The notes below the pieces were generated by a model. It saw only the letters and a program-made list of their open reading frames with translations, was not told where the DNA came from and searched no databases. DNA of 64,000 bases from a virus. The stretch lies in IMG/VR virus record IMGVR_UViG_3300008952_002488, positions 96,001 through 160,000 of that record. One strand, 5' to 3'. This document shows positions 22,424-42,273 of the stretch, piece after piece (position 1 is the stretch's first letter; each line of letters starts with the position of its first letter). The translations under genes and the position numbers were made by a program.

Positions 22424-22446
22424 GCCGCCTTCGGGCGGCTTTTTTC
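22424..22446 (+). terminator. Rho-independent terminator after tmRNA
   Basis: GCCGCC-TTCG-GGCGGC-TTTTTT. Confidence 0.9.
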
Positions 22447-22494
22447 TTTCTCTCTCAGCTATTTACTTTAGAAGTGTTCCTGAAAGGAAAAAAT

Positions 22495-25329: not shown

Positions 25330-26598
25330 TTGACAGAAAAAAAGAAGATAAAAGTTTTAACAATTAGTGATCACCCACTATTACCCTCGGGTGTTGGAAC
25401 TCAAACAAAATATGTTATTCAAGCCCTTTTAAATACCGGAAAATTTCAGATAATATCTTTAGGTGGGGCGATAAAGCATCCTGATTATAATGTAACTAGA
25501 ACAGAGGAGTGGCTCGATGATTGGCTCATTTACCCAGTCGATGGATATGGAAACCAAGAAATTGTAAGAAGCATGATAGCTCAATATAAGCCAGATATTC
25601 TTTATTTTATGACAGACCCAAGATTTTATGAATGGCTTTGGCAGTTTGAGGACGAAATAAGATTAGCAGTACCAATGGTTTATTATCATGTTTGGGATAA
25701 TGGTCCAAGCCCTAGGTTTAATGCTCCATTTTATAGATCAAATGATTATATTGCAACCATTTCAAAAGTTACAAGCAACATAGTAAAAGAAGTTGCACCA
25801 GATGTTCCAGAGGAATATATCCCACATGCTGTAAATTCAGTGGTATTTCGGAAACACACATTGCCAGAAGAAATGGCAATGTTGAGGCAAATAAGAAAAG
25901 ACAATAATTTGGAAAATAAGTTTGTCTGCTTTTGGAACAACAGAAACGCTAGAAGAAAAATGAGTGGTTCTTTAGTTTGGTGGTGGAAGTCCTTCTGTGA
26001 TGAGGTGGGACACGATAAAGCAACACTGATATTACATACCGACCCAAGCGACCCACATGGACAACCTTTAGAGTTTTTAGCCCACGAACTTGGACTAATG
26101 AAAGGTCAGATACATTTCTCGAAAGAAAAAGTGCAACCTCAACAACTGGCAATTTTCTATAATCTTGTAGATTGCACGATAAATATTTCGGATGCAGAAG
26201 GTTTTGGGCTGTCCACGTTGGAATCTTTGTCTTGTGGAACCCCTGTTGTTGCGACAATGACTGGAGGACTCCAAGAGCAGGTGACCGACGGAGAGAACTT
26301 CTTTGGGGTTGGAATTGAACCTACTTCCCGAGCCGTTATTGGTTCACAGCAAGTCCCATATATCTATGAAGATAGAATAAACGAGGAAGTTTTCGTTGAT
26401 GCTCTTAAAAAGATATATTATGCGACAGAAGAAGAGAGGCAAGAGATGGGGCGAATGGGCATGGAACACGTTAAAAAGAACTATAATTTTGAGACTTTTA
26501 ATAAACAGTGGATCGATTTCATGTTAAGAGTTCATGAAGAGAGCGGATCTTGGGAAACAAGAAAGAATCACGAAGCCTGGGAGTTTATTGAATTATGA
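25330..26598 (+). CDS. GT-B glycosyltransferase (GT4-like)
   Basis: SDHPLLPSGV, NRNARRK, AEGFGLSTLESLSCGTP. Confidence 0.9.
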   Translation: MTEKKKIKVLTISDHPLLPSGVGTQTKYVIQALLNTGKFQIISLGGAIKHPDYNVTRTEEWLDDWLIYPVDGYGNQEIVRSMIAQYKPDILYFMTDPRFYEWLWQFEDEIRLAVPMVYYHVWDNGPSPRFNAPFYRSNDYIATISKVTSNIVKEVAPDVPEEYIPHAVNSVVFRKHTLPEEMAMLRQIRKDNNLENKFVCFWNNRNARRKMSGSLVWWWKSFCDEVGHDKATLILHTDPSDPHGQPLEFLAHELGLMKGQIHFSKEKVQPQQLAIFYNLVDCTINISDAEGFGLSTLESLSCGTPVVATMTGGLQEQVTDGENFFGVGIEPTSRAVIGSQQVPYIYEDRINEEVFVDALKKIYYATEEERQEMGRMGMEHVKKNYNFETFNKQWIDFMLRVHEESGSWETRKNHEAWEFIEL

Positions 26599-27872
26599 TA
26601 AAAGTCTTAATAAAAGGACCAATTTTTAGTAGAAGCGGTTATGGCGAGCATACAAGATATATGTTTAGGGCACTAAATAGTCGTCCGGATCTTTTTGATA
26701 TTTTTGTACATCCGACTAATTGGGGGCAGTCAAGCTGGAATCTTGATTCCTCTGAGGAAACCAAAAATTTCGAAACTTGTGTAAACAAGTTGCAGCAGTT
26801 CCAAGGCAAATTTGATTTGTCGCTTCAGGTATTAATCCCAAATGAGTGGGAGAATTTAGCAGAAAAGAATATTGGAGTCACGGCTGCTATTGAAACAACT
26901 TATGCTTCGGCTCAGTGGATTCACAGCAGTAATTTCATGGATAAGATTTTTGTTACCTCTGAGCACGCCAAAAATACCTTAAAAAACCCGTCTCACACAG
27001 TTAAGACTGAAGATGGAAAAGAGCATATTATAAAACTTACAAAACCAGTTTCTGTGATTTCTTATCCATTTAGAGATATTAAAGCAGATAAATCCAGCCA
27101 CAAGAAAATAAAGCTGGATACAAAGTTTAATTTTTTAACCTGTGCTCAGATTGGACCTCGTAAAAACCTTATGAATACTATTCGTTGGTTTGTTGAGGAA
27201 TTTAAAAATGAAGAAGATGTCGGATTGGTTGTAAAAGCCCACCACATGAATAACAGCGTTTTAGACCGCAATAAAGTGAAGATGTTGCTTAGTCAAGCAG
27301 TTCACGGAGTTCCACACAGAAAATGTAGAGTTTTTCTTCTTCACGGAAATATGACTGAGGAAGAGATGAATTCTCTATATAAGCATCCAAATATTCATGC
27401 GTATGCAACAATAACCCACGGGGAAGGATTCGGTCTTCCTATTTTTGAGGCTGCTTGTAGTGGTTTGCCCGTCATAGCTCCCGCCTGGTCTGGACAAGTT
27501 GACTTCCTTTACGACAACATTAAAAATAAAAAATCAGGTAGACTAAAAAGGACACCAATGTTTACAAAAGTAAAGTATAAATTAGATAAGGTCCCACAAG
27601 AAGCTGTCTGGGAAAATGTTGTAGAAGCAGATTCACAGTGGTGCTATTCAGATGAGGCGGCTTATAAAAAAGCCCTAAGAGGAACCATAGAAGCCTACAA
27701 GAGCAGAAAGATTGTAGCAGGAAAGCTTCAAAAATCCTTAGAGAAGAGACTTGATCAAACGAAAATGTTCGAAAAAGTTGTAGAAGAAGTATTAGATGTA
27801 TACCCTGAAGATGTTGCTGAGTTAGAAGATTTTCTAGATGGTCTAGCATCTGAAATACAAGTGCATGAGTAA
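26595..27872 (+). CDS. GT-B glycosyltransferase (GT4-like)
   Basis: SRSGYG, GPRKN, HGEGFGLPIFEAACSGLP. Confidence 0.9.
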   Translation: MIKVLIKGPIFSRSGYGEHTRYMFRALNSRPDLFDIFVHPTNWGQSSWNLDSSEETKNFETCVNKLQQFQGKFDLSLQVLIPNEWENLAEKNIGVTAAIETTYASAQWIHSSNFMDKIFVTSEHAKNTLKNPSHTVKTEDGKEHIIKLTKPVSVISYPFRDIKADKSSHKKIKLDTKFNFLTCAQIGPRKNLMNTIRWFVEEFKNEEDVGLVVKAHHMNNSVLDRNKVKMLLSQAVHGVPHRKCRVFLLHGNMTEEEMNSLYKHPNIHAYATITHGEGFGLPIFEAACSGLPVIAPAWSGQVDFLYDNIKNKKSGRLKRTPMFTKVKYKLDKVPQEAVWENVVEADSQWCYSDEAAYKKALRGTIEAYKSRKIVAGKLQKSLEKRLDQTKMFEKVVEEVLDVYPEDVAELEDFLDGLASEIQVHE

Positions 27873-28710
27873 GATATTATTCATTGCCGATATATTTGCA
27901 GAAGAGTGGCTCGGCGGTGGAGAACTTAATAACCAAGAACTCATTGGGATATTGAGAGAAAAAGGACATGAGGTTCTGACTGTTAAAAGCGAAAATGTCA
28001 ATTTAGAATTTTTACAACATTGGCAGAATGACGCAAAATTTATCGTCTCCAATTTCATAAAACTGCCGGAAGAAGTAAAGCAACACCTTCAGGAGAAGCA
28101 TGATTATGTGATTTATGAACATGATCACAAATATTTGACAACTAGAGATCCATCTGTTTTCGAAAATTATCTAGCGCCGGATGAAAATATTGTAAATCTT
28201 GATTTCTATAAAAATGCAAGAGCCGTTTTTTGTCAAAGTAGTTTACATGCTGAGGTTGTAGAAAAAAACATAAAAACAGGAAATGTACATTCGCTTGGGG
28301 GAAACCTCTGGAGCCTCGAAATTTTAGATATGTTATCATCTTTATTCCACAAGGAGAAAAAGGAAAGATATTCGATATGGGACTCGCACAATCCTATAAA
28401 AAATACTTCGCTAGCTAAAGCTTATTGTCACAGAAATAAATTAGAATATGATCTTGTTGGAGAACTACCTTATAGGGAATTTTTAAATCGATTGACAGAT
28501 AATAAATACTTCATATTTTTACCTGAAACACTGGAGACCTTGTGCCGTGTCGTTGTTGAGTGCAGAATGGCCGGCATGACTGTTTTAACAAGTAAGAAGC
28601 TTGGTGCCACAAGTGAAGAGTGGTTCAAATTAAAAGGAGAAGAGCTTATAAGCTTGATGAAGCAGAAAAGAGAAACAATACCAGATTTGGTTTTGGAGAA
28701 ATTATTATGA
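27865..28710 (+). CDS. GT-B glycosyltransferase-like protein
   Basis: GGGE N-terminal loop; ETLCRVVVECRMAG (E-x7-E) motif. Confidence 0.75.
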   Translation: MSKILFIADIFAEEWLGGGELNNQELIGILREKGHEVLTVKSENVNLEFLQHWQNDAKFIVSNFIKLPEEVKQHLQEKHDYVIYEHDHKYLTTRDPSVFENYLAPDENIVNLDFYKNARAVFCQSSLHAEVVEKNIKTGNVHSLGGNLWSLEILDMLSSLFHKEKKERYSIWDSHNPIKNTSLAKAYCHRNKLEYDLVGELPYREFLNRLTDNKYFIFLPETLETLCRVVVECRMAGMTVLTSKKLGATSEEWFKLKGEELISLMKQKRETIPDLVLEKLL

Positions 28711-29441
28711 ATCCAAAAGTTACAATTATAATACCTTGTTATAATTCGGAAAAGTATATCGAAAAGTGTTTGAGGTCTGCCTTATCTCAAACTTATGATA
28801 ATTTTGAGGTTATTTTTGTAGATAATGACAGCGGTGATGACAGCTTGGAAATCGCCGAAAAAATACAAGAAGAGTTCCCAGAACTCCTAATTGATACTGC
28901 CCCAAATTTATACCCATTTTCCTGGGAAGAACCAGTTGAGGCAGCTTTGTCTCTGGCTACTGGTGAATATTTTACAATTCTAGGATCAGACGACTATATT
29001 TCGGAAGATTATGTATCAAATTTCATGAAAAAGATTTTAGAATCCGAAGAAACCATTTTGGTTTTACAAAGCGGAATTAAAGGCATAGACGATAAGTCAA
29101 ATTTGATCGACCAAGATGTTTCTCACATTTATTCAAGTATAGAGGAATTTAAAGAACTCCTGCTGCAAAGATGTCCAGTAACAACTCCGTCCGTAGTTTA
29201 TAAAACAGAGCTTCACGGAAAAGGAATTGTAAGATGGCTGGCTAGCGAATATCTTGGGGCTGCCGATTATGATCTTTATTTTAATTTGGCTGATAATGAC
29301 GTTTATATCCATCCTGTCGGGGAGTGGCTTGGGTATTATTATCGCTGGCACCAAGACCAGGCAACATGGGGGATGCAAAAACAACCTCTAAATTACGACT
29401 TTATGCTCCAGAATCAATGGAGAGAAAAGTGGGGAATGTGA
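28707..29441 (+). CDS. GT2 family glycosyltransferase
   Basis: IIIPCYN, VDNDSGDDS, LGSDD, DYDL; start re-called to ATG 28707. Confidence 0.9.
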   Translation: MNPKVTIIIPCYNSEKYIEKCLRSALSQTYDNFEVIFVDNDSGDDSLEIAEKIQEEFPELLIDTAPNLYPFSWEEPVEAALSLATGEYFTILGSDDYISEDYVSNFMKKILESEETILVLQSGIKGIDDKSNLIDQDVSHIYSSIEEFKELLLQRCPVTTPSVVYKTELHGKGIVRWLASEYLGAADYDLYFNLADNDVYIHPVGEWLGYYYRWHQDQATWGMQKQPLNYDFMLQNQWREKWGM

Positions 29442-31237
29442 AAGTAAGAGTTGTTGACTATATTGCTAACAAAATTGATGAACTTGGTGTAAGGGATGTT
29501 TTTACTCTTACCGGCGGCGGTGCAATGTTCCTCAATGATTGTATTGCAAAACACCCAAATCTAAGAGCTATTTGTAATCACCACGAACAGGCTTGCGCCA
29601 TGGGTGCGGTAGGCTATGGAAAATACACTAACAATTTTGGTGTATCAATAGTGACCACTGGTTGTGGCAGCACTAACGCTCTGACTGGATTATTGGAAGC
29701 GTGGCAAGATAATGTCAAATGCTTGTTTATATCGGGACAAGTAAATAAATCACAAACTACTCATAATATAAACGTACCACTAAGACAACTAGGTGTCCAA
29801 GAGGCTAATATCGTTGATGTAGTAAGACCGATATGTAAATATGCAATTATGATAACAGACCCAAACAGGGTAAAGTTTGAGGTAGAAAAAGCAATTCATA
29901 TCGCCAGTGAAGGACGCCCCGGACCAGTTTGGCTAGATATCCCATTGGATGTACAGGGGGCTTTTATTGACGTTGATGATTGTCTTTCTTATCCCATTAG
30001 GAGAAATAACCACATAAAGAAAAAAATAACCCCAAGCGAGTGCGAATCCTTATCTGAGATGTTTGATAAAGCCGAACGCCCAGTGGTTTTAGTTGGGAAC
30101 GGTGTTCGCCTAGCTGATGCCACGGAACAACTCAAAACATTTGTTGAAAAATATAATATACCCACGGTAGCTACTTTTCTTGGCGTTGATCTACTAGAGA
30201 GTGATCACCCCTTGATGATCGGGAGGGTTGGAATCAAAGGGAATCGTGCAGCAAATTTCGCAATGCAAAACTCGGATCTTTTGATAACTATCGGTACTCG
30301 CTTAGGTGTTCCTGTGACTGGGTATAATTATGAGACCTTCGCTAGAGAGGCAAAGATCGTAGTTGTAGATATTGACAGAGAAGAACACCGGAAAAACACA
30401 ATCAAAATAGATAAACTGATTGGCTCCGATGCTAAGAACTTTTTAGAAATTATAAAGTTTAATAAAAAGGTTACCAAAGAATGGTCAGACACATGTTTGA
30501 GGTGGAAGAAAAACTGGAGAGTATGTAATCCGGAATGGAGCAAAGACAAAGAAGGAATAGATCTATATTATTTTATGGATCATCTCTCAAGGCAGAATAA
30601 AGATGACTCGGTTGTTGTATCTGATGCAGGATCCGCATACTATGTTCCTTCTCAATTTCTGGATATTAAAAAAGAACAAAGATATGTAACGTCTGGAGCA
30701 CAAGCAGACATGGGGTTTACGATCCCCGCCGCCATTGGGGTTAGTGTTGCAAGGGGAGATAAAGAGGTTATAGGAATTACAGGCGATGGATCTTTCCAAA
30801 CAAACATCCAAGAACTTCAGACAATAAAACATTATAACCTACCGATAAAACTTTTCGTGTGGAACAATCACGGATATTTGTCTATCAGAACAACACAGAG
30901 AAAGTTTTTTGATGGCAGATTTATAGGTGTTGACGGCGATTCTGGAGTGTCACTTCCAAACATAGAAAAAATTACCGACGCCTACGGGCTGAAGTATTTT
31001 AAGATTGAAACTGTTGAGGGGTTGGAAGATGGCATACAAAAGGTTCTGAATTATGATGGTCCAGTTGTGTGTGAGGTGATGTGTCAAAAATGGCAAGAAG
31101 TTGTTCCAACGCTTATATCGACAAAGACAAAAGACGGAAGAATCGTGTCTAGACCATTCGAAGATATGTATCCGCTCTTAACTAGAGAAGAATTTTACGA
31201 TAACATGATTATCGAGCCTATAAACTATGAGGAATAA
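29438..31237 (+). CDS. ThDP-dependent acetolactate-synthase-like enzyme (YerE-like sugar-branching enzyme)
   Basis: GGGAMFLND, HHEQAC, GRPGPVWLDIP, GDGSFQ...NN ThDP motif; located in the sugar island; GTG start 29438. Confidence 0.85.
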   Translation: MKVRVVDYIANKIDELGVRDVFTLTGGGAMFLNDCIAKHPNLRAICNHHEQACAMGAVGYGKYTNNFGVSIVTTGCGSTNALTGLLEAWQDNVKCLFISGQVNKSQTTHNINVPLRQLGVQEANIVDVVRPICKYAIMITDPNRVKFEVEKAIHIASEGRPGPVWLDIPLDVQGAFIDVDDCLSYPIRRNNHIKKKITPSECESLSEMFDKAERPVVLVGNGVRLADATEQLKTFVEKYNIPTVATFLGVDLLESDHPLMIGRVGIKGNRAANFAMQNSDLLITIGTRLGVPVTGYNYETFAREAKIVVVDIDREEHRKNTIKIDKLIGSDAKNFLEIIKFNKKVTKEWSDTCLRWKKNWRVCNPEWSKDKEGIDLYYFMDHLSRQNKDDSVVVSDAGSAYYVPSQFLDIKKEQRYVTSGAQADMGFTIPAAIGVSVARGDKEVIGITGDGSFQTNIQELQTIKHYNLPIKLFVWNNHGYLSIRTTQRKFFDGRFIGVDGDSGVSLPNIEKITDAYGLKYFKIETVEGLEDGIQKVLNYDGPVVCEVMCQKWQEVVPTLISTKTKDGRIVSRPFEDMYPLLTREEFYDNMIIEPINYEE

Positions 31238-31240
31238 AAA

Positions 31241-32179
31241 ATGGCAACCGACCCAAAAAAGACAACTATTTTAACACTAAGGAGGCACAAGAGACAAGAA
31301 AAGAAATCTGTATTTGTGACCGCCTATGATTATCCACAGGCACTACTCGCTGACAAGGCGGGAGTTGATGGGATACTTGTTGGCGATTCTTTAGGGATGA
31401 CCACCTTGGGTCATAAAACAACTATACCAGTTACAATGGACGCTATGATTCTGCACGCCGAAGCAGTTGCCCGTGGAGCCAAGAGTGCTTTTCTGGTGGG
31501 AGACATGCCTTACATGTCTTATCAAGCTTCAAACAGCGAAGCAGTACATAATGCTGGTCGGTTTATTCGGGCTGGCATGGATTCTGTCAAAGTCGAGGGA
31601 GCGATGGTGGATCGTATCAAAGCAATTGCTGATGCCGGAATTCTCGTTCAGAGTCACTTAGGTCTCACCCCTCACACAAGAGCAAAGTTAGGTGGCTATA
31701 GAGTTCAGGGAAAAACTGCGGAGAGCACAGAAATTATTCTTAATCAAGCACTCGAACTACAAGAGGCCGGATGTGCCTTCCTTCTGTTAGAGGCGATGCC
31801 AAGAGAATCAGCACAAGCAGTAGCGAAAGAGTTGAGCATCCCGGTGTATGGTATTGGCGCTGGGGATTTGGTGGATGGTCAGCTTGTTATTATGCACGAC
31901 TTGGTTGGGTTATTTTGGGAGTTTAAGTCCAAGTTTGTTAAGAGATACTGCGAGGCTGGAGCCATTATTCAAACGGCTTTGGAACAATATGCCGAAGAAG
32001 TTCGCAATGGAGTGTTTCCCTCAGAAGAAAACTTCTATGAAATTAAAGATGAGGAGCTTGAGAAACTTCTTTCTAATGCAAAATGGAAGTATGAAACCGA
32101 TCAAGGATTTCCAACTAACCATAGTCCAACTCCAAACACAGTAACCCCTAAAGAAGATATTTTCAATAATAAAAAATGA
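31241..32179 (+). CDS. panB: ketopantoate hydroxymethyltransferase-like protein
   Basis: TAYD, ILVGDSLG, GDMPYMSY, VKVEG, HLGLTP, GIGAG..DGQ. Confidence 0.92.
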   Translation: MATDPKKTTILTLRRHKRQEKKSVFVTAYDYPQALLADKAGVDGILVGDSLGMTTLGHKTTIPVTMDAMILHAEAVARGAKSAFLVGDMPYMSYQASNSEAVHNAGRFIRAGMDSVKVEGAMVDRIKAIADAGILVQSHLGLTPHTRAKLGGYRVQGKTAESTEIILNQALELQEAGCAFLLLEAMPRESAQAVAKELSIPVYGIGAGDLVDGQLVIMHDLVGLFWEFKSKFVKRYCEAGAIIQTALEQYAEEVRNGVFPSEENFYEIKDEELEKLLSNAKWKYETDQGFPTNHSPTPNTVTPKEDIFNNKK

Positions 32180-33006
32180 AGGTCCTAATAACTGGGCGAA
32201 ACGGTTTTTTAGCAAAAGAGTTATACGAGAAATTTGACGATCTTGATATAACTTGTGCCGGAAGAAAAGAAGTAAACTTAACGGACAGTCAGTCTGTAAG
32301 AATATTCTTGCAACAAAACAGGTTTGATGCCGTCGTACACACTGCCATAATCGGAGGCAGAAGAAACGAAACAGATACTCTCCAAACCTTTGTTGACAAC
32401 ATTTCGATGTTTAATAATTTGGTAGCAAACAGGCATTCTTTTGGAAAACTAATCAACTTCTGTTCTGGGGCAGCTTTCGGAAAAAATGCTGATATATACA
32501 AATACCAAGAAAACAGAATTTACTCATTTACACCCTCTGATTATTATGGGATGTCGAAAAACATAATCGCCCGTGAGTGCGATAAATTGTTTGATGTTTA
32601 TAATCTTAGGTTGTTCGGGTGCTTTGGGTTTCATGAAGCAAAAACTAGGTTTATAAAATCTTCCATTTTAAGGGCTTTAAAAGGAGAGCCAATATTAATT
32701 CATAAAAATAAGATGATGGATTTTGTTTCATCAGATGACGTGGCAACTGTTGTTCGTCACTATTTGGAAAATGATCCAGGGAAAGATTATGAAAATATCA
32801 ACATATGCTACAAAGAAAAACATACATTAAGGAATATAGCAGCAGAGATTGTAACTTTAACAAATTCTAGTTCTGATATAATATTAGAAGAAGATGGGTT
32901 TGCAAACACCTATACTGGGTGTAGTGATAAATTGGAAACTCTTGGTCTTGACCTACAGGGTCTTGTTGTAGGGTTGAGAAATTTGACGGAAAGATTAAGT
33001 GAATAA
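32176..33006 (+). CDS. NAD-dependent epimerase/reductase (extended SDR)
   Basis: ITGRNGFL, YGMSK. Confidence 0.85.
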   Translation: MKVLITGRNGFLAKELYEKFDDLDITCAGRKEVNLTDSQSVRIFLQQNRFDAVVHTAIIGGRRNETDTLQTFVDNISMFNNLVANRHSFGKLINFCSGAAFGKNADIYKYQENRIYSFTPSDYYGMSKNIIARECDKLFDVYNLRLFGCFGFHEAKTRFIKSSILRALKGEPILIHKNKMMDFVSSDDVATVVRHYLENDPGKDYENINICYKEKHTLRNIAAEIVTLTNSSSDIILEEDGFANTYTGCSDKLETLGLDLQGLVVGLRNLTERLSE

Positions 33007-34342
33007 GCTAGAAGAGATACTTTCACTTGTAAGAGAGTACGCAGAAGAAAATCTCCTCAAAAAATCATGGGAGGAGGGTGATTGGATTAATTATTCTGGT
33101 CCTAATTTTTCTTCGGATGAGTATGCGGCCGCCGTAGAAACACTACTGGACGGATGGCTTGTTATAGGAAAAAGATCTAGGGAATTTGAGAATAGATTTC
33201 CATCGCACCTGGGCAAGAGGTACGGAATTCTGACAAATTCTGGCAGTTCTGCTAATCTTGTAATGGTACATGCCTTTACAAGCAAGCAAAAGTTTATGAA
33301 GAAATATCACCTCCCAAAGGGGAGTAAAATCATCACGCCTGTAGTTTGTTTCCCTACTACGATTAATCCTATTATTCAGGCAGGATTCGAGCCAGTATTT
33401 GTTGATGTTGACTTACCATCTCTTAATCTAAATTTAGACGAAGTAGAAAGATTATTAGAAACAGACAAAGACATAAAAGGACTAATGTTCGCTCACGTTT
33501 TAGGAAACCCACCAGATATGGACAGGGTTATGAGTTTGGTTGAGAAATATGATCTAATATTTCTAGAAGATTCGTGCGATGCCTTGGGGTCTTTTTATGA
33601 CGGAAAACCTTTGGGGTCTTTTGGCCATGCCTCTTCGTGTTCGTTTTATCCAGCGCACCATATGACAATGGGGGAAGGAGGTTTTGTAGCAACAGATGAC
33701 CCAAGAATCCGAAGGGTTCTGGCAAGCTTTAGAGATTGGGGTCGTGCTTGTTACTGCAACGAGAAAAAGCCAGGAGATGTTACAGACGGCACAGCCTGTG
33801 GAAACAGATTTAGAGAGTGGTTAAGAGATGGCAATCAGAGTTTTGTTTATGATCATCGATATGTGTTTGATGAGGTAGGCTTTAATCTAAAACCATTAGA
33901 GCTTCAGTCAGCAATAGGACTTGAACAAATAGAAAAACTTCCATCAATGGATTCTGCTCGGCGCAAGAACTTTCTTCGCCTCAAGGAAATATTTTCAAAA
34001 TATAACGAATATTTTATGCTTCCAACTGCAACTCCAAAATCAGATCCCTGTTGGTTTGGGTTTATGACGACAGTAAAACAAAACAACAAGTTCACAAAAC
34101 AGGATTTGGTTGAGTATCTGGAAGAACACAAGATCCAGACAAGATCATATTTCACAGGTAACTGCTTATACCACCCAGCATATAAGGAATATGCTTCTAA
34201 ATATGAAAACCTTATAGAAAGATTTCCAAACGCTCACGTTGCTACCGTTGATACTTTTTTTATGGGAACCTTCATTGGGATAACCGACCAAAAGTTGGAT
34301 TATATTGAAAAAGTTGTTGACAACTTCTTCGAGAGGGTGTAA
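32999..34342 (+). CDS. rfbH: RfbH/DdhC/AscC-type NDP-4-keto-6-deoxyglucose 3-dehydrase (PMP, 2Fe-2S)
   Basis: NSGSSANL; SFYPAHHMTMGEGG with His in place of Lys; RDWGRACYC...C; YDHRY. Confidence 0.88.
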   Translation: MNKLEEILSLVREYAEENLLKKSWEEGDWINYSGPNFSSDEYAAAVETLLDGWLVIGKRSREFENRFPSHLGKRYGILTNSGSSANLVMVHAFTSKQKFMKKYHLPKGSKIITPVVCFPTTINPIIQAGFEPVFVDVDLPSLNLNLDEVERLLETDKDIKGLMFAHVLGNPPDMDRVMSLVEKYDLIFLEDSCDALGSFYDGKPLGSFGHASSCSFYPAHHMTMGEGGFVATDDPRIRRVLASFRDWGRACYCNEKKPGDVTDGTACGNRFREWLRDGNQSFVYDHRYVFDEVGFNLKPLELQSAIGLEQIEKLPSMDSARRKNFLRLKEIFSKYNEYFMLPTATPKSDPCWFGFMTTVKQNNKFTKQDLVEYLEEHKIQTRSYFTGNCLYHPAYKEYASKYENLIERFPNAHVATVDTFFMGTFIGITDQKLDYIEKVVDNFFERV

Positions 34343-34343
34343 T

Positions 34344-35294
34344 ATGAAAATAGTATATATTACTGGTTGTCTTGGTTTTATTCCATCGTATTTTACGAAA
34401 AAGTGCCTAGAAAGAGGATGGATGGTTTATGGTGTAGATAAAGTTACTTACGCCGCAAATACAAAAATTCTAAAAGAGTTCCAGACTTATGAAAACTTTA
34501 GGTTTAAACAGGAAGATATTAAAGATCTGGATGTTTTATACGATTGCGATTATGTTGTCAACTTTGCAGCAGAATCACATGTTGGTAACAGTATTATAAA
34601 CAGCGATGAATTTATAAACACTAACATCGTGGGTACAAAAAACCTTTTAGACTTAGTTAGGTTTAAACCAATAAACTGTGGAGAGAGACCAATCTTTTTA
34701 CATGTAAGTACTGACGAGGTTTACGGAGATATAGAAGAAGGGTCTCACAAAGAGACAGACTTGTTACACCCAAGCAATCCATATTCGGCAGCCAAAGCAG
34801 CAGCAGATATGCTGGTCTTTGCCTGGGCAAGAACTTATGGTATTAAATATTTGATAGCCAGACCAACAAACAATTACGGTATGAGACAATATCCAGAAAA
34901 GCTTATACCTCTCAGTGTGAAGAATCTGTTGCGTGACAGGAAGATTTGGCTCCACAACAACGGAACACCTGTAAGGAACTGGCTTCACGCAGATGACACG
35001 GCTGAAGCAATCATGACTCTTATTGATTCTGGGGTAACAAATGATATTTTCAACATTGCCGGCGATTTTGAGCAAACAAACGCAGAAACTGTCCGAAAGA
35101 TTATCAAGTCATTCTATGGAACAGATGACGACTGGGAAAAGTATGTTGATTATTCATATGAGAGAGAAGGTCAGGATATGAGATATTGTTTAGATGACAA
35201 CAAAATAAGATCTCTTGGTTGGACACCTAAGAAGATATTTGATGAAGAAATAGACGAAATAGTTTCTTTTTATAAGAAAAATTTTATATGGTAA
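34344..35294 (+). CDS. rmlB: dTDP-glucose 4,6-dehydratase
   Basis: DKVTYAAN, FAAESHV, STDEVYG, PYSAAK, QYPEKLIP; start re-called to ATG 34344. Confidence 0.88.
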   Translation: MKIVYITGCLGFIPSYFTKKCLERGWMVYGVDKVTYAANTKILKEFQTYENFRFKQEDIKDLDVLYDCDYVVNFAAESHVGNSIINSDEFINTNIVGTKNLLDLVRFKPINCGERPIFLHVSTDEVYGDIEEGSHKETDLLHPSNPYSAAKAAADMLVFAWARTYGIKYLIARPTNNYGMRQYPEKLIPLSVKNLLRDRKIWLHNNGTPVRNWLHADDTAEAIMTLIDSGVTNDIFNIAGDFEQTNAETVRKIIKSFYGTDDDWEKYVDYSYEREGQDMRYCLDDNKIRSLGWTPKKIFDEEIDEIVSFYKKNFIW

Positions 35295-35298
35295 GAAA

Positions 35299-36237
35299 AT
35301 GAGATTAGATTACAAAGATATTATTAATAAACACAAAGGAAAGCCGTGTGTGGTTGCTCTCCATGGACCCAGTTTATCACCACACATAGATGAAATTCAA
35401 AACCTCCAAAAACAGGATAAAATAATAAGAATTTCTGTAAATGAGTGGTTTGATTTCTTTAAAGAAAAGCCAGATTATTGGGTAATTTCCAATGCCGAGC
35501 TTAATATTAGGGACTCAGTATTAAACGAGAACATTTGGAAAATGAGAGGATACCCACCAGATGTTTTTAATACTCAGGGGGTACCTCTATTATATAACAG
35601 AACAGCCGATTTGACAGATCCAGATTTTGTAGATAAGAACTTAAAGTGTGATTATCTTCCGTTCGATAATAGACACTTTAAAGGACATAAGTGTCTGGAC
35701 ATTTTGAAAAACTTTAAAAAATATCACGATGAAAACAGGAATCTAGATTTTAGAATGTACGGGAATAATGCCCAAATGTGGCAACTCCCAGATACAAGAA
35801 GTGTAAACCCACACTGTGCTCAGGTACATGGGGTCGTTGCGGGCGGCTGGTCACGCTTTGGAAAGTGTTGTCATTTGATGCAGGAAACAACTATACAAGA
35901 AAAATTACAAGAGATAACTGGACACCCCCAACATATGGGCGTTGGACAGACGGTAGGATTGTTTTGTGTTATGTTTGCTGTTATGATGGGGTGTAATCCA
36001 ATATATGTTACCGGACTTGATTTAGACTATACGCTTGGGTATGCTGAAGGTGCCGACAAGCCCTATTATGTTCCTAACCCAGGTAACGTTGGACACTGGC
36101 GTCACGTCTTCCAAGAATTTCTAACAGATGATATGAGGATTTTGCGTGAGAGTGCAGATTTAAATGGTATAGAAATTATTAACCTTAATAAAAACGCATG
36201 GTATGATGTGTTTAAGAAAGGAGACTTAGGTCTATGA
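35299..36237 (+). CDS. Maf/CstII-like nonulosonate glycosyltransferase
   Basis: KPCVVALHGPSL and MMGCNPIYVTGLD motifs; directly upstream of neuB and neuA. Confidence 0.65.
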   Translation: MRLDYKDIINKHKGKPCVVALHGPSLSPHIDEIQNLQKQDKIIRISVNEWFDFFKEKPDYWVISNAELNIRDSVLNENIWKMRGYPPDVFNTQGVPLLYNRTADLTDPDFVDKNLKCDYLPFDNRHFKGHKCLDILKNFKKYHDENRNLDFRMYGNNAQMWQLPDTRSVNPHCAQVHGVVAGGWSRFGKCCHLMQETTIQEKLQEITGHPQHMGVGQTVGLFCVMFAVMMGCNPIYVTGLDLDYTLGYAEGADKPYYVPNPGNVGHWRHVFQEFLTDDMRILRESADLNGIEIINLNKNAWYDVFKKGDLGL

Positions 36238-37070
36238 GTGTTTTTGTGATTGCTGAGGTTGGAATTAACCACAACGGGAGTCTTGATATTGCGAAGCAGC
36301 TAATTGATGCCGCCGTCGAGGCTGGCTGTGATGCTGTTAAGTTTCAAAAGAGAACGGTGGATGTTGTATACACCAAGGAGGAGTTAGACAAGCCGAGGGA
36401 GAGTCCGTGGGGAACTACAAACCGTCAACAAAAATATGGACTGGAGTTTACCAAGGAAGATTACCAAGAGATCGATCAATATTGTAAAAATGCGGGCATC
36501 GAGTGGCTTGCATCTGCATGGGATGTAGAAAGTCAGAAGTTTCTACGTCAGTTTGATTGCAAATATAATAAAGTGGCGTCAGCAATGTTGACACATAGAG
36601 AATTGTTAAAAACGATTGCTTCGGAGAAGAAACATACGTTCATTTCGACTGGAATGAGCACCCTGGAACAGATTGATAAGGCTGTACAGATCTTTGAGGA
36701 CGCTGATTGTTCGTATGAACTCATGCACTGCAATAGTACCTACCCAATGCCGGTCGAAGATGCAAATTTAAAGGTTATGCACACTCTTCAGGAACGCTAT
36801 AATTGTAACGTTGGATATAGTGGTCATGAGAGTGGTGTTATCGTTAGTTGTGCGGCAGTTGCTATGGGTGCCTCATCTCTTGAGCGCCACATCACACTTG
36901 ATAGAGCAATGTATGGATCGGATCAGTCAGCTTCTCTGGAAATTGGAGGACTGAATAAATTGATGGAGTATGTCAGAGATATTACAAAATCTATGGGCTC
37001 ACCGGAAAAAAGAGTGATGAGGACAGAGGTGGACATTGCCGAAAAACTCAGAAAGTTTGACACCCTGTGA
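36234..37070 (+). CDS. neuB: N-acetylneuraminate/nonulosonate synthase (short form, no C-terminal AFP/SAF domain)
   Basis: IAEVGINHNG, DAVKFQ, ISTGMS, HCNSTYP, GYSGH, ERHITLDR. Confidence 0.92.
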   Translation: MSVFVIAEVGINHNGSLDIAKQLIDAAVEAGCDAVKFQKRTVDVVYTKEELDKPRESPWGTTNRQQKYGLEFTKEDYQEIDQYCKNAGIEWLASAWDVESQKFLRQFDCKYNKVASAMLTHRELLKTIASEKKHTFISTGMSTLEQIDKAVQIFEDADCSYELMHCNSTYPMPVEDANLKVMHTLQERYNCNVGYSGHESGVIVSCAAVAMGASSLERHITLDRAMYGSDQSASLEIGGLNKLMEYVRDITKSMGSPEKRVMRTEVDIAEKLRKFDTL

Positions 37071-37792
37071 GACAAATTTCTGCCCTCATTCCTGCAAGAG
37101 GTGGAAGCAAGGGAATACACAAAAAGAATATAAAGCTATTACATGGGCATCCTCTAATAGCCTATTCTATAATCGCTTGTAAAATGTCGGATATGATTGG
37201 TAGAATTATAGTATCTACCGATGATGAAGAAATAGCCGAGGTGGCGCTGAAATACGGAGCAGAAGTGCCATTTATGCGACCCGCTGAATTGGCAACCGAC
37301 AAGTCGAGGGACATGGAAGTCATTAAACACTATTTTGATGTAACTGGCGATGCAGATGTTGCATACATTAGACCAACAACGCCCTTGAGAGATCCAAAAT
37401 TTATTGATGAGAATATTAGAGAATATTTTCATACAAAAATATTGTGCTCAACGGGGGTTCGGTCCATGCATGAATTGCCAGAATCGCCGCACAAGATGTT
37501 CCAAATAGACAAAAATGGTTATTGCCGTGGTTTTTTTGATGATTTCGATGGGATAAAAAACTACACAAACTTACCGAGACAAATATTTCCGAAAGCATAT
37601 CAACCAAATGGGTATTTGGATATTGTTAAAAGAGCCACTCTTGATGTTGGCGATACGTTCGGAGATAACATTTTGCCCATTGTGACGGAGTTTGTCATAG
37701 AGGTTGATACACCATTTCAATTCGAACTTCTTGAGAGTCAACTTAATTCAAAGGGTCATGTTTTATTGGGTGAATTAAAAAATGAGCATTGA
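37067..37792 (+). CDS. neuA: CMP-nonulosonate synthetase (acylneuraminate cytidylyltransferase)
   Basis: IPARGGSKGIHKKN, VSTDDEEI, RPTTPLR, YQPNG. Confidence 0.92.
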   Translation: MRQISALIPARGGSKGIHKKNIKLLHGHPLIAYSIIACKMSDMIGRIIVSTDDEEIAEVALKYGAEVPFMRPAELATDKSRDMEVIKHYFDVTGDADVAYIRPTTPLRDPKFIDENIREYFHTKILCSTGVRSMHELPESPHKMFQIDKNGYCRGFFDDFDGIKNYTNLPRQIFPKAYQPNGYLDIVKRATLDVGDTFGDNILPIVTEFVIEVDTPFQFELLESQLNSKGHVLLGELKNEH

Positions 37793-39041
37793 GACAAAAC
37801 ATAGAAAAATTAATGCTGGATATAAGCTAGAAGAAACAGAACTCAATGACCGCCGCCACGAGTTAGAAACAAAAGCCAACGGACACCAAGTCCCTGTCGT
37901 TTGGGATAGTGCTATCGACTATAACGTTTTCGACAAGCAGGGTAATAAATGGATTGATATGACTGCCGGCATCTTTGCGGCAAACGCAGGACACTCCAAC
38001 CCAAAGATTAAAGAAGCTATTCAGAACCAACTGGATAAAAACCTTATTTTCGCTTATCAATATATAACGGAGATAAGACAGCAGTTTGTCGAAAAGCTTT
38101 TGGATAGCTCCCCAGATCATTTTGATAAAACCATCCTGATGAATACAGGCTCAGAAGCCACGGACGTAGCCTATAAACTGATCAAGTTATGGGCAAAGAA
38201 AAACAACAAGAAATATATTGTTACTTTCAATGGAAGTTACCACGGGCGGGTTCTTGGGTCTGCTTTAGTGTGCGGATCAAAGGGGGCAGCAGATTGGTCT
38301 TCGGTAGTTGATGACGATGTTATATTTATAGATTTCCCGACAGACCAGGGTGCCGAGTTTGATCCCACAATATTGGGAGATCCCGCTAATATTGCTGCAT
38401 TTATGATTGAAACATACCAAGGGTGGGCAGCGTGGATGTACCCTCCTCAATATATCCAGGCGCTCTATAAATTTGCCAGAGATAACGGAGCCCTTATTTG
38501 TTTTGATGAAGTTCAGGCAGGGTTTTACCGCATGGGTAAAATGTACGGCTATATGACTTATGGAGAAAACATCAAGCCTGATCTGATATGTTTAGGGAAG
38601 GGTATTTCATCCTCTTTGCCGATGGCTGCTGTCCTTGGTACAGAGGAGATTATTGATGTTGATTTAAACGCAAACTTGAGCGGAACTCATGCTGGTAATG
38701 CGCTAGGGTCTGCTGCTTGCTTGGCAAACCTTGATATATTAACCGACGAAGAGTTTCAAAGGGAATTAAAAGAAAGAGTTAACGCATTTGAGAGAAGAAG
38801 TCAAGACCTGTTAAAATATCAATGCGTGGAGGCTATCAACGCCAGGGGCATCGTCGCAGGTATTGTATTTGACACAACAGAAAGAACAAACAAAATAGTG
38901 TTTGACTGTATTGAGCATGGAGTGCTTCCTGTTTGCACATTTAGAGAATCAATTAAGCTTGGTCCACCACTAACGATACCAGTAGATGCTATTCATGAAG
39001 CTTTTGATGTTATAGAAGAGTGCATCCAAAGGAACCAGTAA
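37782..39041 (+). CDS. class-III PLP aminotransferase
   Basis: NTGSEA, SYHGR, FDEVQAG, PDLICLGKG, GTHAGN. Confidence 0.88.
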   Translation: MSIETKHRKINAGYKLEETELNDRRHELETKANGHQVPVVWDSAIDYNVFDKQGNKWIDMTAGIFAANAGHSNPKIKEAIQNQLDKNLIFAYQYITEIRQQFVEKLLDSSPDHFDKTILMNTGSEATDVAYKLIKLWAKKNNKKYIVTFNGSYHGRVLGSALVCGSKGAADWSSVVDDDVIFIDFPTDQGAEFDPTILGDPANIAAFMIETYQGWAAWMYPPQYIQALYKFARDNGALICFDEVQAGFYRMGKMYGYMTYGENIKPDLICLGKGISSSLPMAAVLGTEEIIDVDLNANLSGTHAGNALGSAACLANLDILTDEEFQRELKERVNAFERRSQDLLKYQCVEAINARGIVAGIVFDTTERTNKIVFDCIEHGVLPVCTFRESIKLGPPLTIPVDAIHEAFDVIEECIQRNQ

Positions 39042-39832
39042 TGCACCCGAATCTTTTGGCTTATGACGACCATGAGGTTTTTGATTCTAAAGAGAACATC
39101 TCTGTTTATCGAGCCTCAAAATTGAAGGGAGTTCGGAAGAATATCTCTTTCATAAAAAACAACTTTGACAAAAAGTTAAGAGTGCTTGAGATAGGGTCCG
39201 GAAACTCAAAATTCTTATACGCCCTAGAAATAGAAAACATGCTAGATGAAGGGTATGGATTTGAGGTGAGTAAAAGCAGAAATAGGTTCGCCGATGAGTG
39301 GAAACGGGATTTGGGGATTGAAAATGTTCATAACATCAAAGAGGACATTTTAAAAACAAGGTTTGACAGATTACCAACTTTTGATCTCGTTTATTGTGTA
39401 GATCTAGCCTTTCAGTTTTTGGAACCAATTGAATCAGAGGGCGATTTAAAAATTCTAAAGTCGATTTATGGTCGCTTAAAAAACGGTGGCAAAGTAGTAT
39501 TAGAGCTTGACTGTCACGAAAGACTTGTTAATAAAATGGAAGACGGAAAAATAAAAACATGGCAAGAATTTAAAGAACCAGATCCTTGGCAATATCTTCT
39601 TTGGGACTGTAACCTAAAGAATAATCACCTAACCTTGAATAAAACATTCATAAAGAGAAACCTCTCAGAGACATCAAAAAGTAATGTGGTATTAAAAAAT
39701 TATCAACGCTCTGATATACTTCATTTACTGTTCTTAGCTGGATTTGATAATATCCAAATATTTGAAAGCTGGAATAAGGATGACGACTTATTAGAAGATG
39801 AATTTATTGTGATTGGTGAAAAGAATGCTTAA
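39041..39832 (+). CDS. class I SAM-dependent methyltransferase
   Basis: VLEIGSGNS, FDLVY, LKNGGKVVL; start re-called to ATG 39041. Confidence 0.8.
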   Translation: MHPNLLAYDDHEVFDSKENISVYRASKLKGVRKNISFIKNNFDKKLRVLEIGSGNSKFLYALEIENMLDEGYGFEVSKSRNRFADEWKRDLGIENVHNIKEDILKTRFDRLPTFDLVYCVDLAFQFLEPIESEGDLKILKSIYGRLKNGGKVVLELDCHERLVNKMEDGKIKTWQEFKEPDPWQYLLWDCNLKNNHLTLNKTFIKRNLSETSKSNVVLKNYQRSDILHLLFLAGFDNIQIFESWNKDDDLLEDEFIVIGEKNA

Positions 39833-40256
39833 TATACGACACACTGGTATTGTTGTTAGTGACGCAGAGAAGTCAATAGATTTCTACACTAACCTTTTGG
39901 GATTTAGAATCAAGAAGGATATGATGGAGTCGGGAGATTATATTGATAATTTTTCTGCCCTCAAGAACGTCAGGGTTCGCACAATAAAAATGACGCTAGA
40001 GAATGATGATATGGTAGAACTTCTCTGGTACGAAACACACCCAGAAGAGCCTGATATGAGCCGACCAATAACCAGAATCGGATGTTCTCATTTTGCGATG
40101 ACAGTAAAAAACTTAGATGAAACTTATGAAAGATTAGTGGAGGCAGGAGTTTATTTTAACAGCCCACCCCAGTTATCTCCTGATGGGTTTGCTAAAGTTA
40201 CATTTTGTAAAGATCCTGATGGCAGTCTAATAGAACTAGTAGAGGAACTGCGTTGA
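39825..40256 (+). CDS. VOC/glyoxalase family protein
   Basis: RHTGIVV...FY..LLGF, VELL, HFAMTV, DPDGSLIEL. Confidence 0.85.
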   Translation: MLNIRHTGIVVSDAEKSIDFYTNLLGFRIKKDMMESGDYIDNFSALKNVRVRTIKMTLENDDMVELLWYETHPEEPDMSRPITRIGCSHFAMTVKNLDETYERLVEAGVYFNSPPQLSPDGFAKVTFCKDPDGSLIELVEELR

Positions 40257-41002
40257 GTTATTTGGATAGCGTATTCTCCTTATCTGGTAAGGTGGCTGTT
40301 GTTACTGGTGCCAACGGAGGTATTGGGCAAGCAATAACCTTATCTCTTGCGGAAGCAGGAGCCAGCAAGGTTTACGCACTAGATTTGGAAAGCAATGCCG
40401 AATGGCCAAATAGTAACATTGAGAACTTTTCCATAGACCTGCGAGACGAAAATCAGATTAATAATTTTGCCGAACAAGTTAGTCTGAAGCACCCTCGTGG
40501 GGCAGACATTTTGGTCAATTGTGCCGGAGTTACGTTTACTAATGATTTTTTTAACTACTCTAACGAAGATTGGGACATGACATATAAGGTTAATTTACTA
40601 GCCCCATATTTACTCTCAAGGAGTTTGGCTAAAAATATGCTCGGGGGCTCTATTATAAATATAACGAGCCTAAATGCCGAACTAGCCTTTCCCAATAATC
40701 CAGCTTATGTTACCACAAAACATGGCTTAAAGGGTTTAACAAAAACTTTAGCCCTTGAGTTGGGGAGAAAAAATATTAGAGTAAACAACGTTGGTCCTGG
40801 CTATATCAAAACAGAAATGACAAAGAAGAGTTGGTCAAATGATACAATCCACGAAGAGAGGAAAAAGAAAACTTTTCTTAATCGCTGGGGGACACCAACA
40901 GATATTGCAGGGACTGTATTATTCCTAGCATCTGACGCCTCTTCTTATATTACAGGACAAGACATTTATGTTGACGGCGGCTGGACCGCAAAGGGGTTAT
41001 AA
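40253..41002 (+). CDS. short-chain dehydrogenase/reductase
   Basis: TGANGGIG, NCAG, YVTTK, VDGGW. Confidence 0.9.
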   Translation: MSYLDSVFSLSGKVAVVTGANGGIGQAITLSLAEAGASKVYALDLESNAEWPNSNIENFSIDLRDENQINNFAEQVSLKHPRGADILVNCAGVTFTNDFFNYSNEDWDMTYKVNLLAPYLLSRSLAKNMLGGSIINITSLNAELAFPNNPAYVTTKHGLKGLTKTLALELGRKNIRVNNVGPGYIKTEMTKKSWSNDTIHEERKKKTFLNRWGTPTDIAGTVLFLASDASSYITGQDIYVDGGWTAKGL

Positions 41003-41003
41003 A

Positions 41004-41357
41004 ATGACATTAGAGATGACACATGTTGATAAAGGCTGGGGCTGGGAAAGATGGATCGTCAACAAAGAGGAGTATTGCGGAAAACTTCTATTCTTCAATA
41101 AAGACAAGCGATGTTCTTGGCACTATCACAAACTAAAGGACGAAGTATTCTATCTTCAGTCCGGTAAGATGTTGATCAAATATGGTGATGATGACAGCTT
41201 GGAGGATGCGAACGAGCTTATCCTTAATGCAGGTGACAATTTTCATGTATATAGAGGGCTTAGACATCAGATGATCGCCTTAGAAGACTCAGAACTTTTT
41301 GAGTTTTCAACACAGCATTTTGACAGCGACAGTTATAGGGTGGTGAAAGGTGACTAA
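41004..41357 (+). CDS. cupin (sugar-phosphate isomerase-like)
   Basis: KGWGWE, SWHYHKLKDEVF, RHQM; start re-called to ATG 41004. Confidence 0.8.
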   Translation: MTLEMTHVDKGWGWERWIVNKEEYCGKLLFFNKDKRCSWHYHKLKDEVFYLQSGKMLIKYGDDDSLEDANELILNAGDNFHVYRGLRHQMIALEDSELFEFSTQHFDSDSYRVVKGD

Positions 41358-42273
41358 AAAGATAAAAGTAAATTTGTTTGATAGCCTCGCACCACCCCAC
41401 TACGATGAATATTGGGGCTGTCAAAATTTCTCTAGTGAATTTGAACCAACAAAGATTGAGTGGCTTAAACAAGGAACAGGGCTCGGACACCCAGAATTTG
41501 ATGGAGTAACTGTATTTACAGACAAAGATTTATTGTCCCCCTGGGTTGATAATGTAAAAAGTAAATACAGGGTTGCCTGGATTGTGGAATGCAGAGGTGT
41601 TCACTCGTTTGCATATGACCACATAAAATTTGTGGAACACAAGTTTGATCATGTTTTTACCTTTGACAGGGAGCTTTTAGAAAGCAGCCCGAAATATGTT
41701 AGGAATTTGATTGCAACTTCTCGTGTTTCTGACGAGGATGCGGGACTACACAAGAAGAACAAGATGTTATCACTTATTGCCTCAAAACAGACAATGACCC
41801 GTGGCCACCGCCTTCGACACAAAATAGCAAATGCTATAAAGGATAAATACGATGTTGACCTGTGGGGAGGAGCATATAAGCCTTTTGGAAAAGGCAACAT
41901 AGGACTGACCGCCGGAGCTATTCGAGAAGGAAAGACCGAGCCCCTAAAAGATTATCGCTTTAGTATCACAGTGATGAATTCAAAAGAGGAAAACTATTTT
42001 ACAGAAACACTCGTTGATGTTTTTCGCCACGGCACTATTCCTATATTCTGGGGCTGCCCAAATGTGGGAGAGTTTTTTAACGAGAAGGGAATTCTACAAT
42101 TTGACACAGGGCAACAGTTGGTAGAAATACTCGATAACCTATCAGAAGATTTATATAACAGTAAACTAAAATACGTCAAGGAAAATTTTGAAATTGCAAA
42201 AAAATATGTGTCTATGGACGATACGTTTGCGGAGAATTTAATAAAAACTATACCGGAGCTTTTAGATGACTAG
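41350..42273 (+). CDS. GT10 (fucosyltransferase-like) glycosyltransferase
   Basis: YRFSITVMNS..ENYFTE...GTIPIFWG matches the GT10 motif. Confidence 0.75.
   Translation: MTKKIKVNLFDSLAPPHYDEYWGCQNFSSEFEPTKIEWLKQGTGLGHPEFDGVTVFTDKDLLSPWVDNVKSKYRVAWIVECRGVHSFAYDHIKFVEHKFDHVFTFDRELLESSPKYVRNLIATSRVSDEDAGLHKKNKMLSLIASKQTMTRGHRLRHKIANAIKDKYDVDLWGGAYKPFGKGNIGLTAGAIREGKTEPLKDYRFSITVMNSKEENYFTETLVDVFRHGTIPIFWGCPNVGEFFNEKGILQFDTGQQLVEILDNLSEDLYNSKLKYVKENFEIAKKYVSMDDTFAENLIKTIPELLDD

Follow-up and report, generated by a model that had tools for sequence, protein, structure and literature searches.

The 64-kb stretch of DNA analysed here (the window; bases 96001-160000 of the 171,926-bp IMG/VR contig IMGVR_UViG_3300008952_002488, whose completeness CheckV estimates at ~60%) comes from a large marine myovirus. 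On the plus strand it carries a run of five genes in which neighbours overlap or lie 1-3 nt apart (Table 1; all coordinates are positions within the window). These genes encode a YerE-like enzyme dependent on thiamine diphosphate (ThDP), a PanB-family hydroxymethyltransferase, a short member of the short-chain dehydrogenase/reductase (SDR) superfamily, an RfbH-type 3-dehydrase and an RmlB-like 4,6-dehydratase. An earlier note, made from the letters of the window alone, had pointed to this tight run and to the lack of panC, panD and panE in the window. Our analysis confirmed the five genes, their strand and their packing, and none of the three pantothenate genes (panE being sought as the ApbA family) was found anywhere on the contig. 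Judging from sequence and gene context, the most likely role of this PanB is to form the side chain of a branched deoxysugar not yet described, and not a vitamin.

Table 1. Genes of the PanB-containing run and the flanking parts of the sugar island (positions in the window)
Feature	Position	Strand	Basis
YerE-like ThDP-dependent carboligase, 599 aa	29438..31237	+	TPP_enzyme_N, M and C domains; JanthE 8rph
PanB-family 2-oxo acid hydroxymethyltransferase, 312 aa	31241..32179	+	PF02548, TIGR00222
Short SDR, 276 aa	32176..33006	+	PF01370 Epimerase, RmlD-like
E1/RfbH-type nucleoside diphosphate (NDP)-4-keto-6-deoxyhexose 3-dehydrase using pyridoxamine 5'-phosphate (PMP) and a [2Fe-2S] cluster	32999..34342	+	NF011936
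RmlB-like NDP-hexose 4,6-dehydratase, 316 aa from ATG 34344	34344..35294	+	TIGR01181
Two GT4 glycosyltransferases, unknown 281-aa protein, GT2 glycosyltransferase	25330..29441	+	Pfam, synteny
Remaining sugar island	35299..50235	+	Pfam, NCBIfam

The reading frame of the ThDP enzyme is open from position 29324, but the homology to YerE-like proteins begins only at residue 39, which corresponds to a GTG codon sharing bases with the stop codon of the GT2 gene before it (GTGA); the start given in Table 1, which is also that of the earlier note, is therefore correct. All three TPP domains are present, and neither the catalytic Glu nor the GDG...NN motif varies in the alignment. The closest solved structure is that of JanthE (8rph, 436 bits), a characterised YerE-like carboligase that accepts ketones (PMC12188165), while matches to acetohydroxyacid synthases (AHAS) reach at most 248 bits; furthermore, the protein scores below every NCBIfam cut-off for acetolactate synthases (374.8 vs 538 for TIGR00118). 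By these scores, for which JanthE and not YerE or ErwE themselves served as the reference of the class, the enzyme is, as the earlier note had proposed, a YerE-like carboligase, and not an acetolactate synthase. It is predicted to use a non-activated ketone, namely a 4-keto sugar, as the acceptor. The contig carries no other full ThDP enzyme of the acetolactate-synthase type.

The PanB protein matches the PF02548 model over its entire length (positions 1-259 of 259, 326 bits) and exceeds the cut-offs of both NCBIfam models (TIGR00222: score 286.7, cut-off 207.55; NF001452: score 318.6, cut-off 272). The metal-binding and catalytic residues of the Escherichia coli enzyme (D45, S46, D84, K112, E114, H136 and E181) are all identical in the phage protein, and the same residues are invariant across both clades of PanBs linked to ThDP genes that are described below. 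Mutations of I212 and V214 in the E. coli enzyme alter its substrate scope (PMC7610986). At these positions 42 of 43 ThDP-linked PanBs have Leu and 42 of 43 have Ile, respectively (Leu215 and Ile217 in the window's protein, which also has Ser138 beside the catalytic His), whereas other PanBs mostly have Val at both; these replacements hint at a shifted specificity. When we tried to deduce the 2-oxo acid from clade-specific residues, only these modest differences (Ser138, Leu215, Ile217) emerged, and they leave the substrate undecided. The C-terminus (residues 268-312, window 32042-32179) forms an extension of ~40 residues with a WKYE motif, which is conserved in viral clade I and is found neither in clade II nor in other PanBs. 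PHROGs contains no family for the phage PanB, and a tblastn search of phage records returned only matches of up to 47% identity. The best of these, from "Microcystis phage MaAM05", was rejected as a comparator because its panB lies beside panC and sufBCD in bacterial-looking sequence; the end of this record (MW495066.1, 251-274 kb) carries panB, panC, sufBCDS, iscU and guaD and resembles a bacterial chromosome.

For the short SDR no relative of known structure was found at a threshold of 1e-5. Its homologues follow the ThDP gene or the ThDP-PanB genes in 45 of 61 loci with PanB and in 20 of 24 without it, making it the most constant partner of the viral YerE-like genes, and we propose that it is a YerF/ErwF-like reductase of the branch carbonyl. 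The RfbH-type dehydrase exceeds the cut-off of NF011936 (457.7 vs 423) and is closer to Yersinia E1 (3bcx, 340 bits) than to ColD (186 bits). Aligned to 3bcx, it retains the His-His motif of the active site and has, in the region of the cluster, four Cys that we take to be ligands of the [2Fe-2S] cluster. A 3-dehydratase of the E1 or ColD type lies within 3.5 kb in 51 of the 61 loci of the PanB type. The 4,6-dehydratase, whose true start is the ATG immediately after the RfbH stop codon, has as its best model the glucose 4,6-dehydratase specific for deoxythymidine diphosphate (dTDP), albeit below the cut-off (TIGR01181, 301 bits, cut-off 365), and scores only 77 bits against the model of the dehydratase specific for cytidine diphosphate (CDP)-glucose. 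Together with the E1-type enzyme it would make NDP-4-keto-3,6-dideoxyhexose, the usual acceptor of YerE. A related cassette of the same type in a cellular-looking contig (L108, see below) encodes a true RmlB (415.9, cut-off 365.1) and an RmlA-like transferase, which lends indirect support to dTDP as the nucleotide carrier. The dTDP linkage suggested in the earlier note is likely as far as these models and the related cassette go.

The pairing of PanB with the ThDP enzyme extends well beyond this contig. The scan of IMG/VR yielded 114 viral contigs whose PanB shares about 70% identity or more with that of the window, and the protein search revealed more than 120 PanB clusters at identity of at least 74%, many of them from Tara and other marine data. 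ORF-level (open reading frame) synteny revealed a ThDP gene directly adjoining PanB on the same strand, with gaps from -101 to +101 nt, in 87 of 91 loci of the window's PanB clade, many of which come from related phages, so that the counts are not independent; two of the four exceptions end at contig edges. Three arrangements were found: in 47 loci a ThDP gene sharing 52-78% identity with the window's precedes PanB, in 17 a ThDP gene of ~33-37% identity does so, and in 23 PanB comes first, ahead of a ThDP gene of 33-38% identity. Among themselves the ThDP subfamilies share only 33-38% identity. The low-identity partners in the latter arrangements still have JanthE (8rph) as their first PDB match. 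The second-best match of the ThDP enzymes of types B and C is 5ahk, presumably YerE of Pseudomonas protegens. The flanking sugar genes vary: some loci have RfbH and RmlB, others a ColD-like protein together with an FAD oxidase and a B12-dependent radical SAM enzyme, while the pair persists; PanB and the ThDP enzyme thus form the constant core of a variable island, and their recurrence in ~90 other contigs indicates that the arrangement is not due to chance. Mobile elements have entered sugar genes of related phage-like contigs; in one of these (L106:3306-5645) the B12-binding radical SAM gene contains an intein that bears an HNH domain.

Among 1.84 billion representative proteins, the next relatives are 60%, 56% and 54% identical, and the rest share about 50% or less. 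In the PanB tree the viral clade forms one group (SH-aLRT, the Shimodaira-Hasegawa-like approximate likelihood ratio test, 94-95), adjoined by P0121, P0124 and P0187, while a second clade (SH-aLRT 96) unites P0122, P0140, P0195 and others with a second viral lineage, 45-48% identical to the window's PanB and likewise located beside ThDP genes. We inspected the contexts of seven relatives outside the lineage. P0121, P0124 and P0187 lie on phage-like contigs with the ThDP gene adjoining or close (on the contig of P0187 it is split by an HNH ORF); the phage-like contigs outside the clade on which the pairing is kept are L107, L109 and L194. On L194 (positions 1740-4325) the HNH endonuclease ORF divides the ThDP gene into a piece with the N domain and a piece with the M and C domains. 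The other three adjoin a ThDP gene: P0122 in the cellular-looking contig L108, where the genes run in the order Wzx, GT2, RmlB, RmlA-like, RfbH-like, ThDP, PanB, SDR, GT10; P0140 in another cellular-looking contig (L113; PanB, ThDP, GT9); and P0195 in a short contig of unclear class (L196; ThDP, PanB, DegT). The seventh relative is P0123, discussed below. PanBs from ordinary genomes (up to 48% identity) have no ThDP neighbour; the control P0127, for instance, is located beside folD and the MTHFR gene. Hence, the adjacency on which the interpretation in the earlier note hinged is conserved, in three gene orders and two PanB clades, and the phage protein belongs to a viral clade distinct from housekeeping PanBs.

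The genome collections were scanned with two clade-specific peptide patterns only, by which close cellular relatives could escape detection; the matches of at least 65% identity lie on metagenome-assembled (MAG) or single-amplified (SAG) genome contigs whose viral or cellular origin is unclear. PanBs 72-76% identical to the window's were found on contigs assigned to a Prochlorococcus SAG (AG-670-O13, L083), a Marinimicrobia SAG (AG-404-J18, L086) and a Pelagibacter MAG (L084), which may be phage DNA in infected cells or mis-binned sequence and could hint at the hosts.

A search of viral contigs with the ThDP alignment returned 79 new loci, 41 with PanB and 38 without, although 3 of the 38 end right after the ThDP gene, so that a PanB could be lost there. 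PanB is absent from loci in which the ThDP enzyme shares 38-49% identity with that of the window. There, the slot beside the ThDP gene may be occupied by another gene, which encodes an HpcH/HpaI aldolase (L157:5766-6593, L158:5768-6592), a NeuB-family synthase (L187:5773-6858, and L164:1991-3490, where it is fused to SAF and cupin domains) or an unknown protein of 252-288 aa (L156, L177, L185); in others of these loci the SDR stands directly beside the ThDP gene, as in a plain YerE-YerF layout. On the ThDP tree the label "PanB neighbour" requires at least 7 changes, which implies repeated exchange of the partner. Such a slot has a precedent in the systems ErwI/ErwE/ErwF, MMAR_2331/2332 and MygI/MyGE/MygF, in which an aldolase acts before the YerE-like enzyme and a reductase after it: the aldolase product, a gamma-hydroxy-2-oxo acid, is ligated by the YerE-like enzyme to CDP-4-keto-3,6-dideoxyglucose and the reductase finishes the sugar (PMC9306805). 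ErwE takes 4-hydroxy-2-oxobutanoate and refuses pyruvate (PMC9306805), while PanB of E. coli is also a class II aldolase that yields 4-hydroxy-2-oxo acids (PMC7610986). The contents of the slot match the published scheme, in which the neighbouring enzyme forms the 2-oxo acid donor for the YerE-like enzyme.

Taken together, we consider it reasonably probable that the run of five genes serves as a cassette for making a 3,6-dideoxyhexose with an acyl branch at C4, PanB supplying the donor. That PanB and the ThDP enzyme are functionally coupled in some way seems very likely, while the specific mechanism, in which PanB hands its product to the ThDP enzyme, is one that we favour with some reserve; the conserved adjacency, the replacement of the slot and the published scheme all lend support to the earlier note's proposal that PanB makes the branch donor. 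In the pathway that we envisage, the RmlB-like and E1-type enzymes would convert NDP-glucose supplied by the host, probably dTDP-glucose, into NDP-4-keto-3,6-dideoxyhexose, for which the E1 enzyme would need a reductase from the host or elsewhere. PanB would hydroxymethylate a free 2-oxo acid, with 5,10-methylene-tetrahydrofolate or formaldehyde, to a 4-hydroxy-2-oxo acid; since its catalytic residues are all conserved, the default product would be ketopantoate from 2-oxoisovalerate, but lower homologues from pyruvate or 2-oxobutyrate are also conceivable. The YerE-like enzyme would then decarboxylate this product and attach the acyl anion so formed to the sugar at its C4 ketone, giving a tertiary alcohol. 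The short SDR would reduce the carbonyl of the side chain in the manner of YerF and ErwF, and the flanking soluble glycosyltransferases would consume the branched sugar. What the analysis establishes are the identities of the genes, their catalytic residues and the conserved pairing of PanB with a YerE-like enzyme; the order of the steps, the substrates and the product are suggested by sequence, context and precedent.

Several observations weigh against this interpretation. Neither a sugar-1-phosphate nucleotidyltransferase (PF00483) nor an E3-type reductase (Fer2 or NAD_binding_1 domain) was found on the ~60% complete contig; host enzymes may take their place. A PanB that passes the equivalog cut-offs with all catalytic residues kept could simply carry out canonical ketopantoate synthesis. 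If ketopantoate were the donor, its bulky quaternary C3 would be, to our knowledge, unprecedented among the tested YerE-like enzymes. As for the pairing, the non-independence of the 91 loci reduces the weight of their number, two of the exceptions (L086 and L089) have space for a ThDP gene and yet lack one, and P0123, a member of clade II, has no ThDP neighbour, the only such case among the seven relatives.

PanB could also act after the ligation, the YerE-like enzyme adding a C2 unit from pyruvate and PanB hydroxymethylating the sugar-bound acetyl group or a carbon next to the 4-keto group, by which the branch would be lengthened or decorated on the nucleotide sugar. The gene order in the window (ThDP, PanB, SDR) fits such a sequence of steps, although the reverse order of PanB and ThDP genes is equally common in the relatives; an alpha-hydroxy ketone could conceivably chelate the metal like a 2-oxo acid, but the carboxylate-binding residues S46 and K112 are, together with the catalytic ones, invariant in both clades, which indicates a free 2-oxo acid. 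In the case of ErwI/ErwE the same alternative called for an experimental test, and for erwiniose it was rejected (PMC9306805); we regard it as unlikely here. We find it somewhat more doubtful that PanB serves as a folate-independent class II aldolase, which would join an aldehyde larger than formaldehyde to the 2-oxo acid and thus provide a longer, polyhydroxylated donor, in the manner proposed for the caryophyllose and gastriose chains. E. coli ketopantoate hydroxymethyltransferase (KPHMT) and its variants do take acetaldehyde, lactaldehyde and C4/C5 aldoses (PMC7610986), true aldolases fill the same slot in sister islands, and both ThDP-linked clades differ from most PanBs at the specificity positions I212 and V214; the latter changes, however, go to larger residues and give no hint of a wider pocket, and no aldehyde-generating gene lies beside the pair.

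Several tailoring enzymes of the island (a cupin, a VOC protein, a methyltransferase and an aminotransferase of class III) have no assigned role, which leaves room for a scheme in which the product of PanB and the ThDP enzyme is a free small acid or acyloin for O- or N-acyl decoration of other sugars of the island, such as the nonulosonate. This is improbable, as the pair occurs without NeuB and NeuA in many loci, travels with 3-dehydratases of the E1 or ColD type and the short SDR, and has no acyl-activating enzyme or acyltransferase beside it. The remaining reading, PanB as a plain auxiliary metabolic gene (AMG) that raises the host's pantothenate and coenzyme A (CoA) with the ThDP enzyme as the acetolactate synthase of the valine/pantoate route, is in our view very improbable. 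It agrees with the equivalog scores of PanB and with a virome study of a marine oxygen-minimum zone, in which "pantoate transferase" was the most abundant vitamin AMG and a boost of CoA was inferred (PMC8940887). However, the ThDP enzyme is YerE-like and scores under all AHAS cut-offs, no ilvN, ilvC or ilvD was found in Pfam scans of ORFs of at least 100 aa across 19-64 kb of the window, panC, panD and panE are missing from the contig, and panB lies among sugar genes throughout, its place being taken by aldolases in sister islands.

The run of five genes belongs to an island of ~25 kb (~25.3-50.2 kb) whose genes are all on the plus strand and all encode soluble sugar enzymes or glycosyltransferases, as judged by Pfam and NCBIfam. 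The upstream block (GT4, GT4, the 281-aa protein and GT2) is conserved in many related islands, and its glycosyltransferases are likely users of the sugars. On its left the island is bordered by a conserved protein of 279 aa (window 24478-25317) that matches phage exonuclease families (phrog_69, E 6.5e-20), which places the beginning of the island proper at the first GT4 gene (25330). The downstream part contains a nonulosonate module (an MptE-like protein, a short NeuB and NeuA) with the tailoring enzymes mentioned above, as well as a GT10-like transferase and an HldE-like kinase/adenylyltransferase. It also includes a second, independent branching module (window 43146-49097) with mini E1-alpha (208 aa) and E1-beta (178 aa) ThDP subunits, a ColD-like 3-dehydratase, two Fcl-like SDRs, a Gmd-like dehydratase and RmlC; the module is similar to C2-branching systems of the alpha-keto acid dehydrogenase type (PMC12247030). 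A crude hydropathy scan covered 32 proteins encoded between 22.4 and 50.2 kb, each of which had at most one isolated hydrophobic window, and no Wzx, Wzy/polymerase or priming transferase was seen in the island (25330-50235). The glycan is probably built on a soluble target or passed to the host machinery, if the gene content is a guide; virion proteins may be such a target.

Baseplate genes (gp25 and a wedge protein) with distant relatives in Flavobacterium and Microcystis myoviruses indicate a large tailed phage, as do a 2275-aa protein, five tRNAs, a tmRNA and a PhoH gene; a DNA search of GenBank phages with the region gave no match. If the PIN-PhoH ORF (22363-23802) is read from its longest predicted start, it overlaps the tmRNA gene (window 22098-22423, tag ANDDFEMEMAA); the match to the PIN domain begins at residue 49 of this ORF, so that its true start is probably downstream of the tmRNA.

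The panB clade studied here is abundant in marine viruses, and in every informative context examined it belongs to a sugar cassette. For this clade, the contexts argue against the CoA-boost reading (PMC8940887). We tentatively extend the argument to the lineage as a whole: these abundant myoviruses might make a C4-branched 3,6-dideoxyhexose from the PanB product for a cytoplasmic, membrane-independent glycosylation of their own virion proteins, in an island that swaps donor enzymes. This joint reading is rather speculative, as are its details, namely that the side chain may carry the gem-dimethyl quaternary carbon of ketopantoate in a sugar that has not been described, and that the swaps among PanB, HpcH aldolase and NeuB-like enzymes would resemble O-antigen loci that swap sugar genes. 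If it is true, "viral panB" in ocean viromes reports glycan diversification and not vitamin B5 synthesis. More generally, the cassette would add a third type of donor-forming enzyme, the folate-type hydroxymethyltransferase, to the scheme of acyl-branched sugars, and it predicts undescribed sugars with hydroxymethylated side chains. It also suggests a natural pair of PanB and YerE-like enzymes for biocatalysis, by which tertiary alcohols bearing functionalised side chains could be made. The sugar islands of large marine phages are modular, exchange their genes rapidly and consist of soluble enzymes only, which raises the question of the glycosylation target. Our literature search found PanB and YerE together only in a general review that names PanB/KPHMT and YerE, and found no report of YerE-like clusters in phages.

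Compared with housekeeping PanB/KPHMT (E. coli, 1m3u; Mycobacterium tuberculosis, 1oy0), the phage PanB shares the fold family, the full-length match and the catalytic and metal-binding residues. It differs from candidate housekeeping enzymes in its low identity (at most 48-50% in the search of representatives and the genome scan) and separate clade, in the Leu/Ile pair, the Ser by the catalytic His and the C-terminal extension of ~40 residues, as well as in its genomic context, with a ThDP gene adjoining in 87 of 91 loci and without panC, panD and panE on the contig. The ThDP enzyme has its closest solved relative in JanthE of Janthinobacterium sp. HH01 (8rph, 8rpi, 8rpj), which is likewise YerE-like, accepts ketones and uses a broad range of 2-oxo acid donors; the ThDP motif reads CDG in JanthE, whereas the phage enzyme keeps GDG.

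At the level of pathways, the yersiniose A system of Yersinia pseudotuberculosis (E1/E3, YerE, YerF) has in common with the phage cassette an E1-type 3-dehydrase, a YerE-like enzyme and (in the phage, putatively) a side-chain reductase, but YerE uses pyruvate directly and has no donor-making partner. The closest parallel is provided by the erwiniose, caryophyllose and gastriose clusters of the "unifying scheme" (Steitz et al. 2022, PMC9306805), namely ErwI/ErwJ-ErwE-ErwF of Pectobacterium atrosepticum, MMAR_2331/2332 of Mycobacterium marinum and MygI/MyGE/MygF. Like the phage cassette, they place a gene for an enzyme that forms (in the phage, putatively) a gamma-hydroxy-2-oxo acid beside a YerE-like carboligase and a reductase (a candidate in the phage), and they contain genes for a 4-keto-3,6-dideoxyhexose acceptor, of which the phage has those for the 4,6-dehydratase and the E1-type enzyme. 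The donor-forming enzyme is a pyruvate aldolase of the BphI or HpcH type in those clusters and a PanB-family hydroxymethyltransferase in the phage. The phage cassette further differs in its carrier, probably dTDP instead of CDP, in lacking an E3 reductase and a nucleotidyltransferase on the contig, and in being phage-borne, within an island devoid of genes for export or polymerisation.

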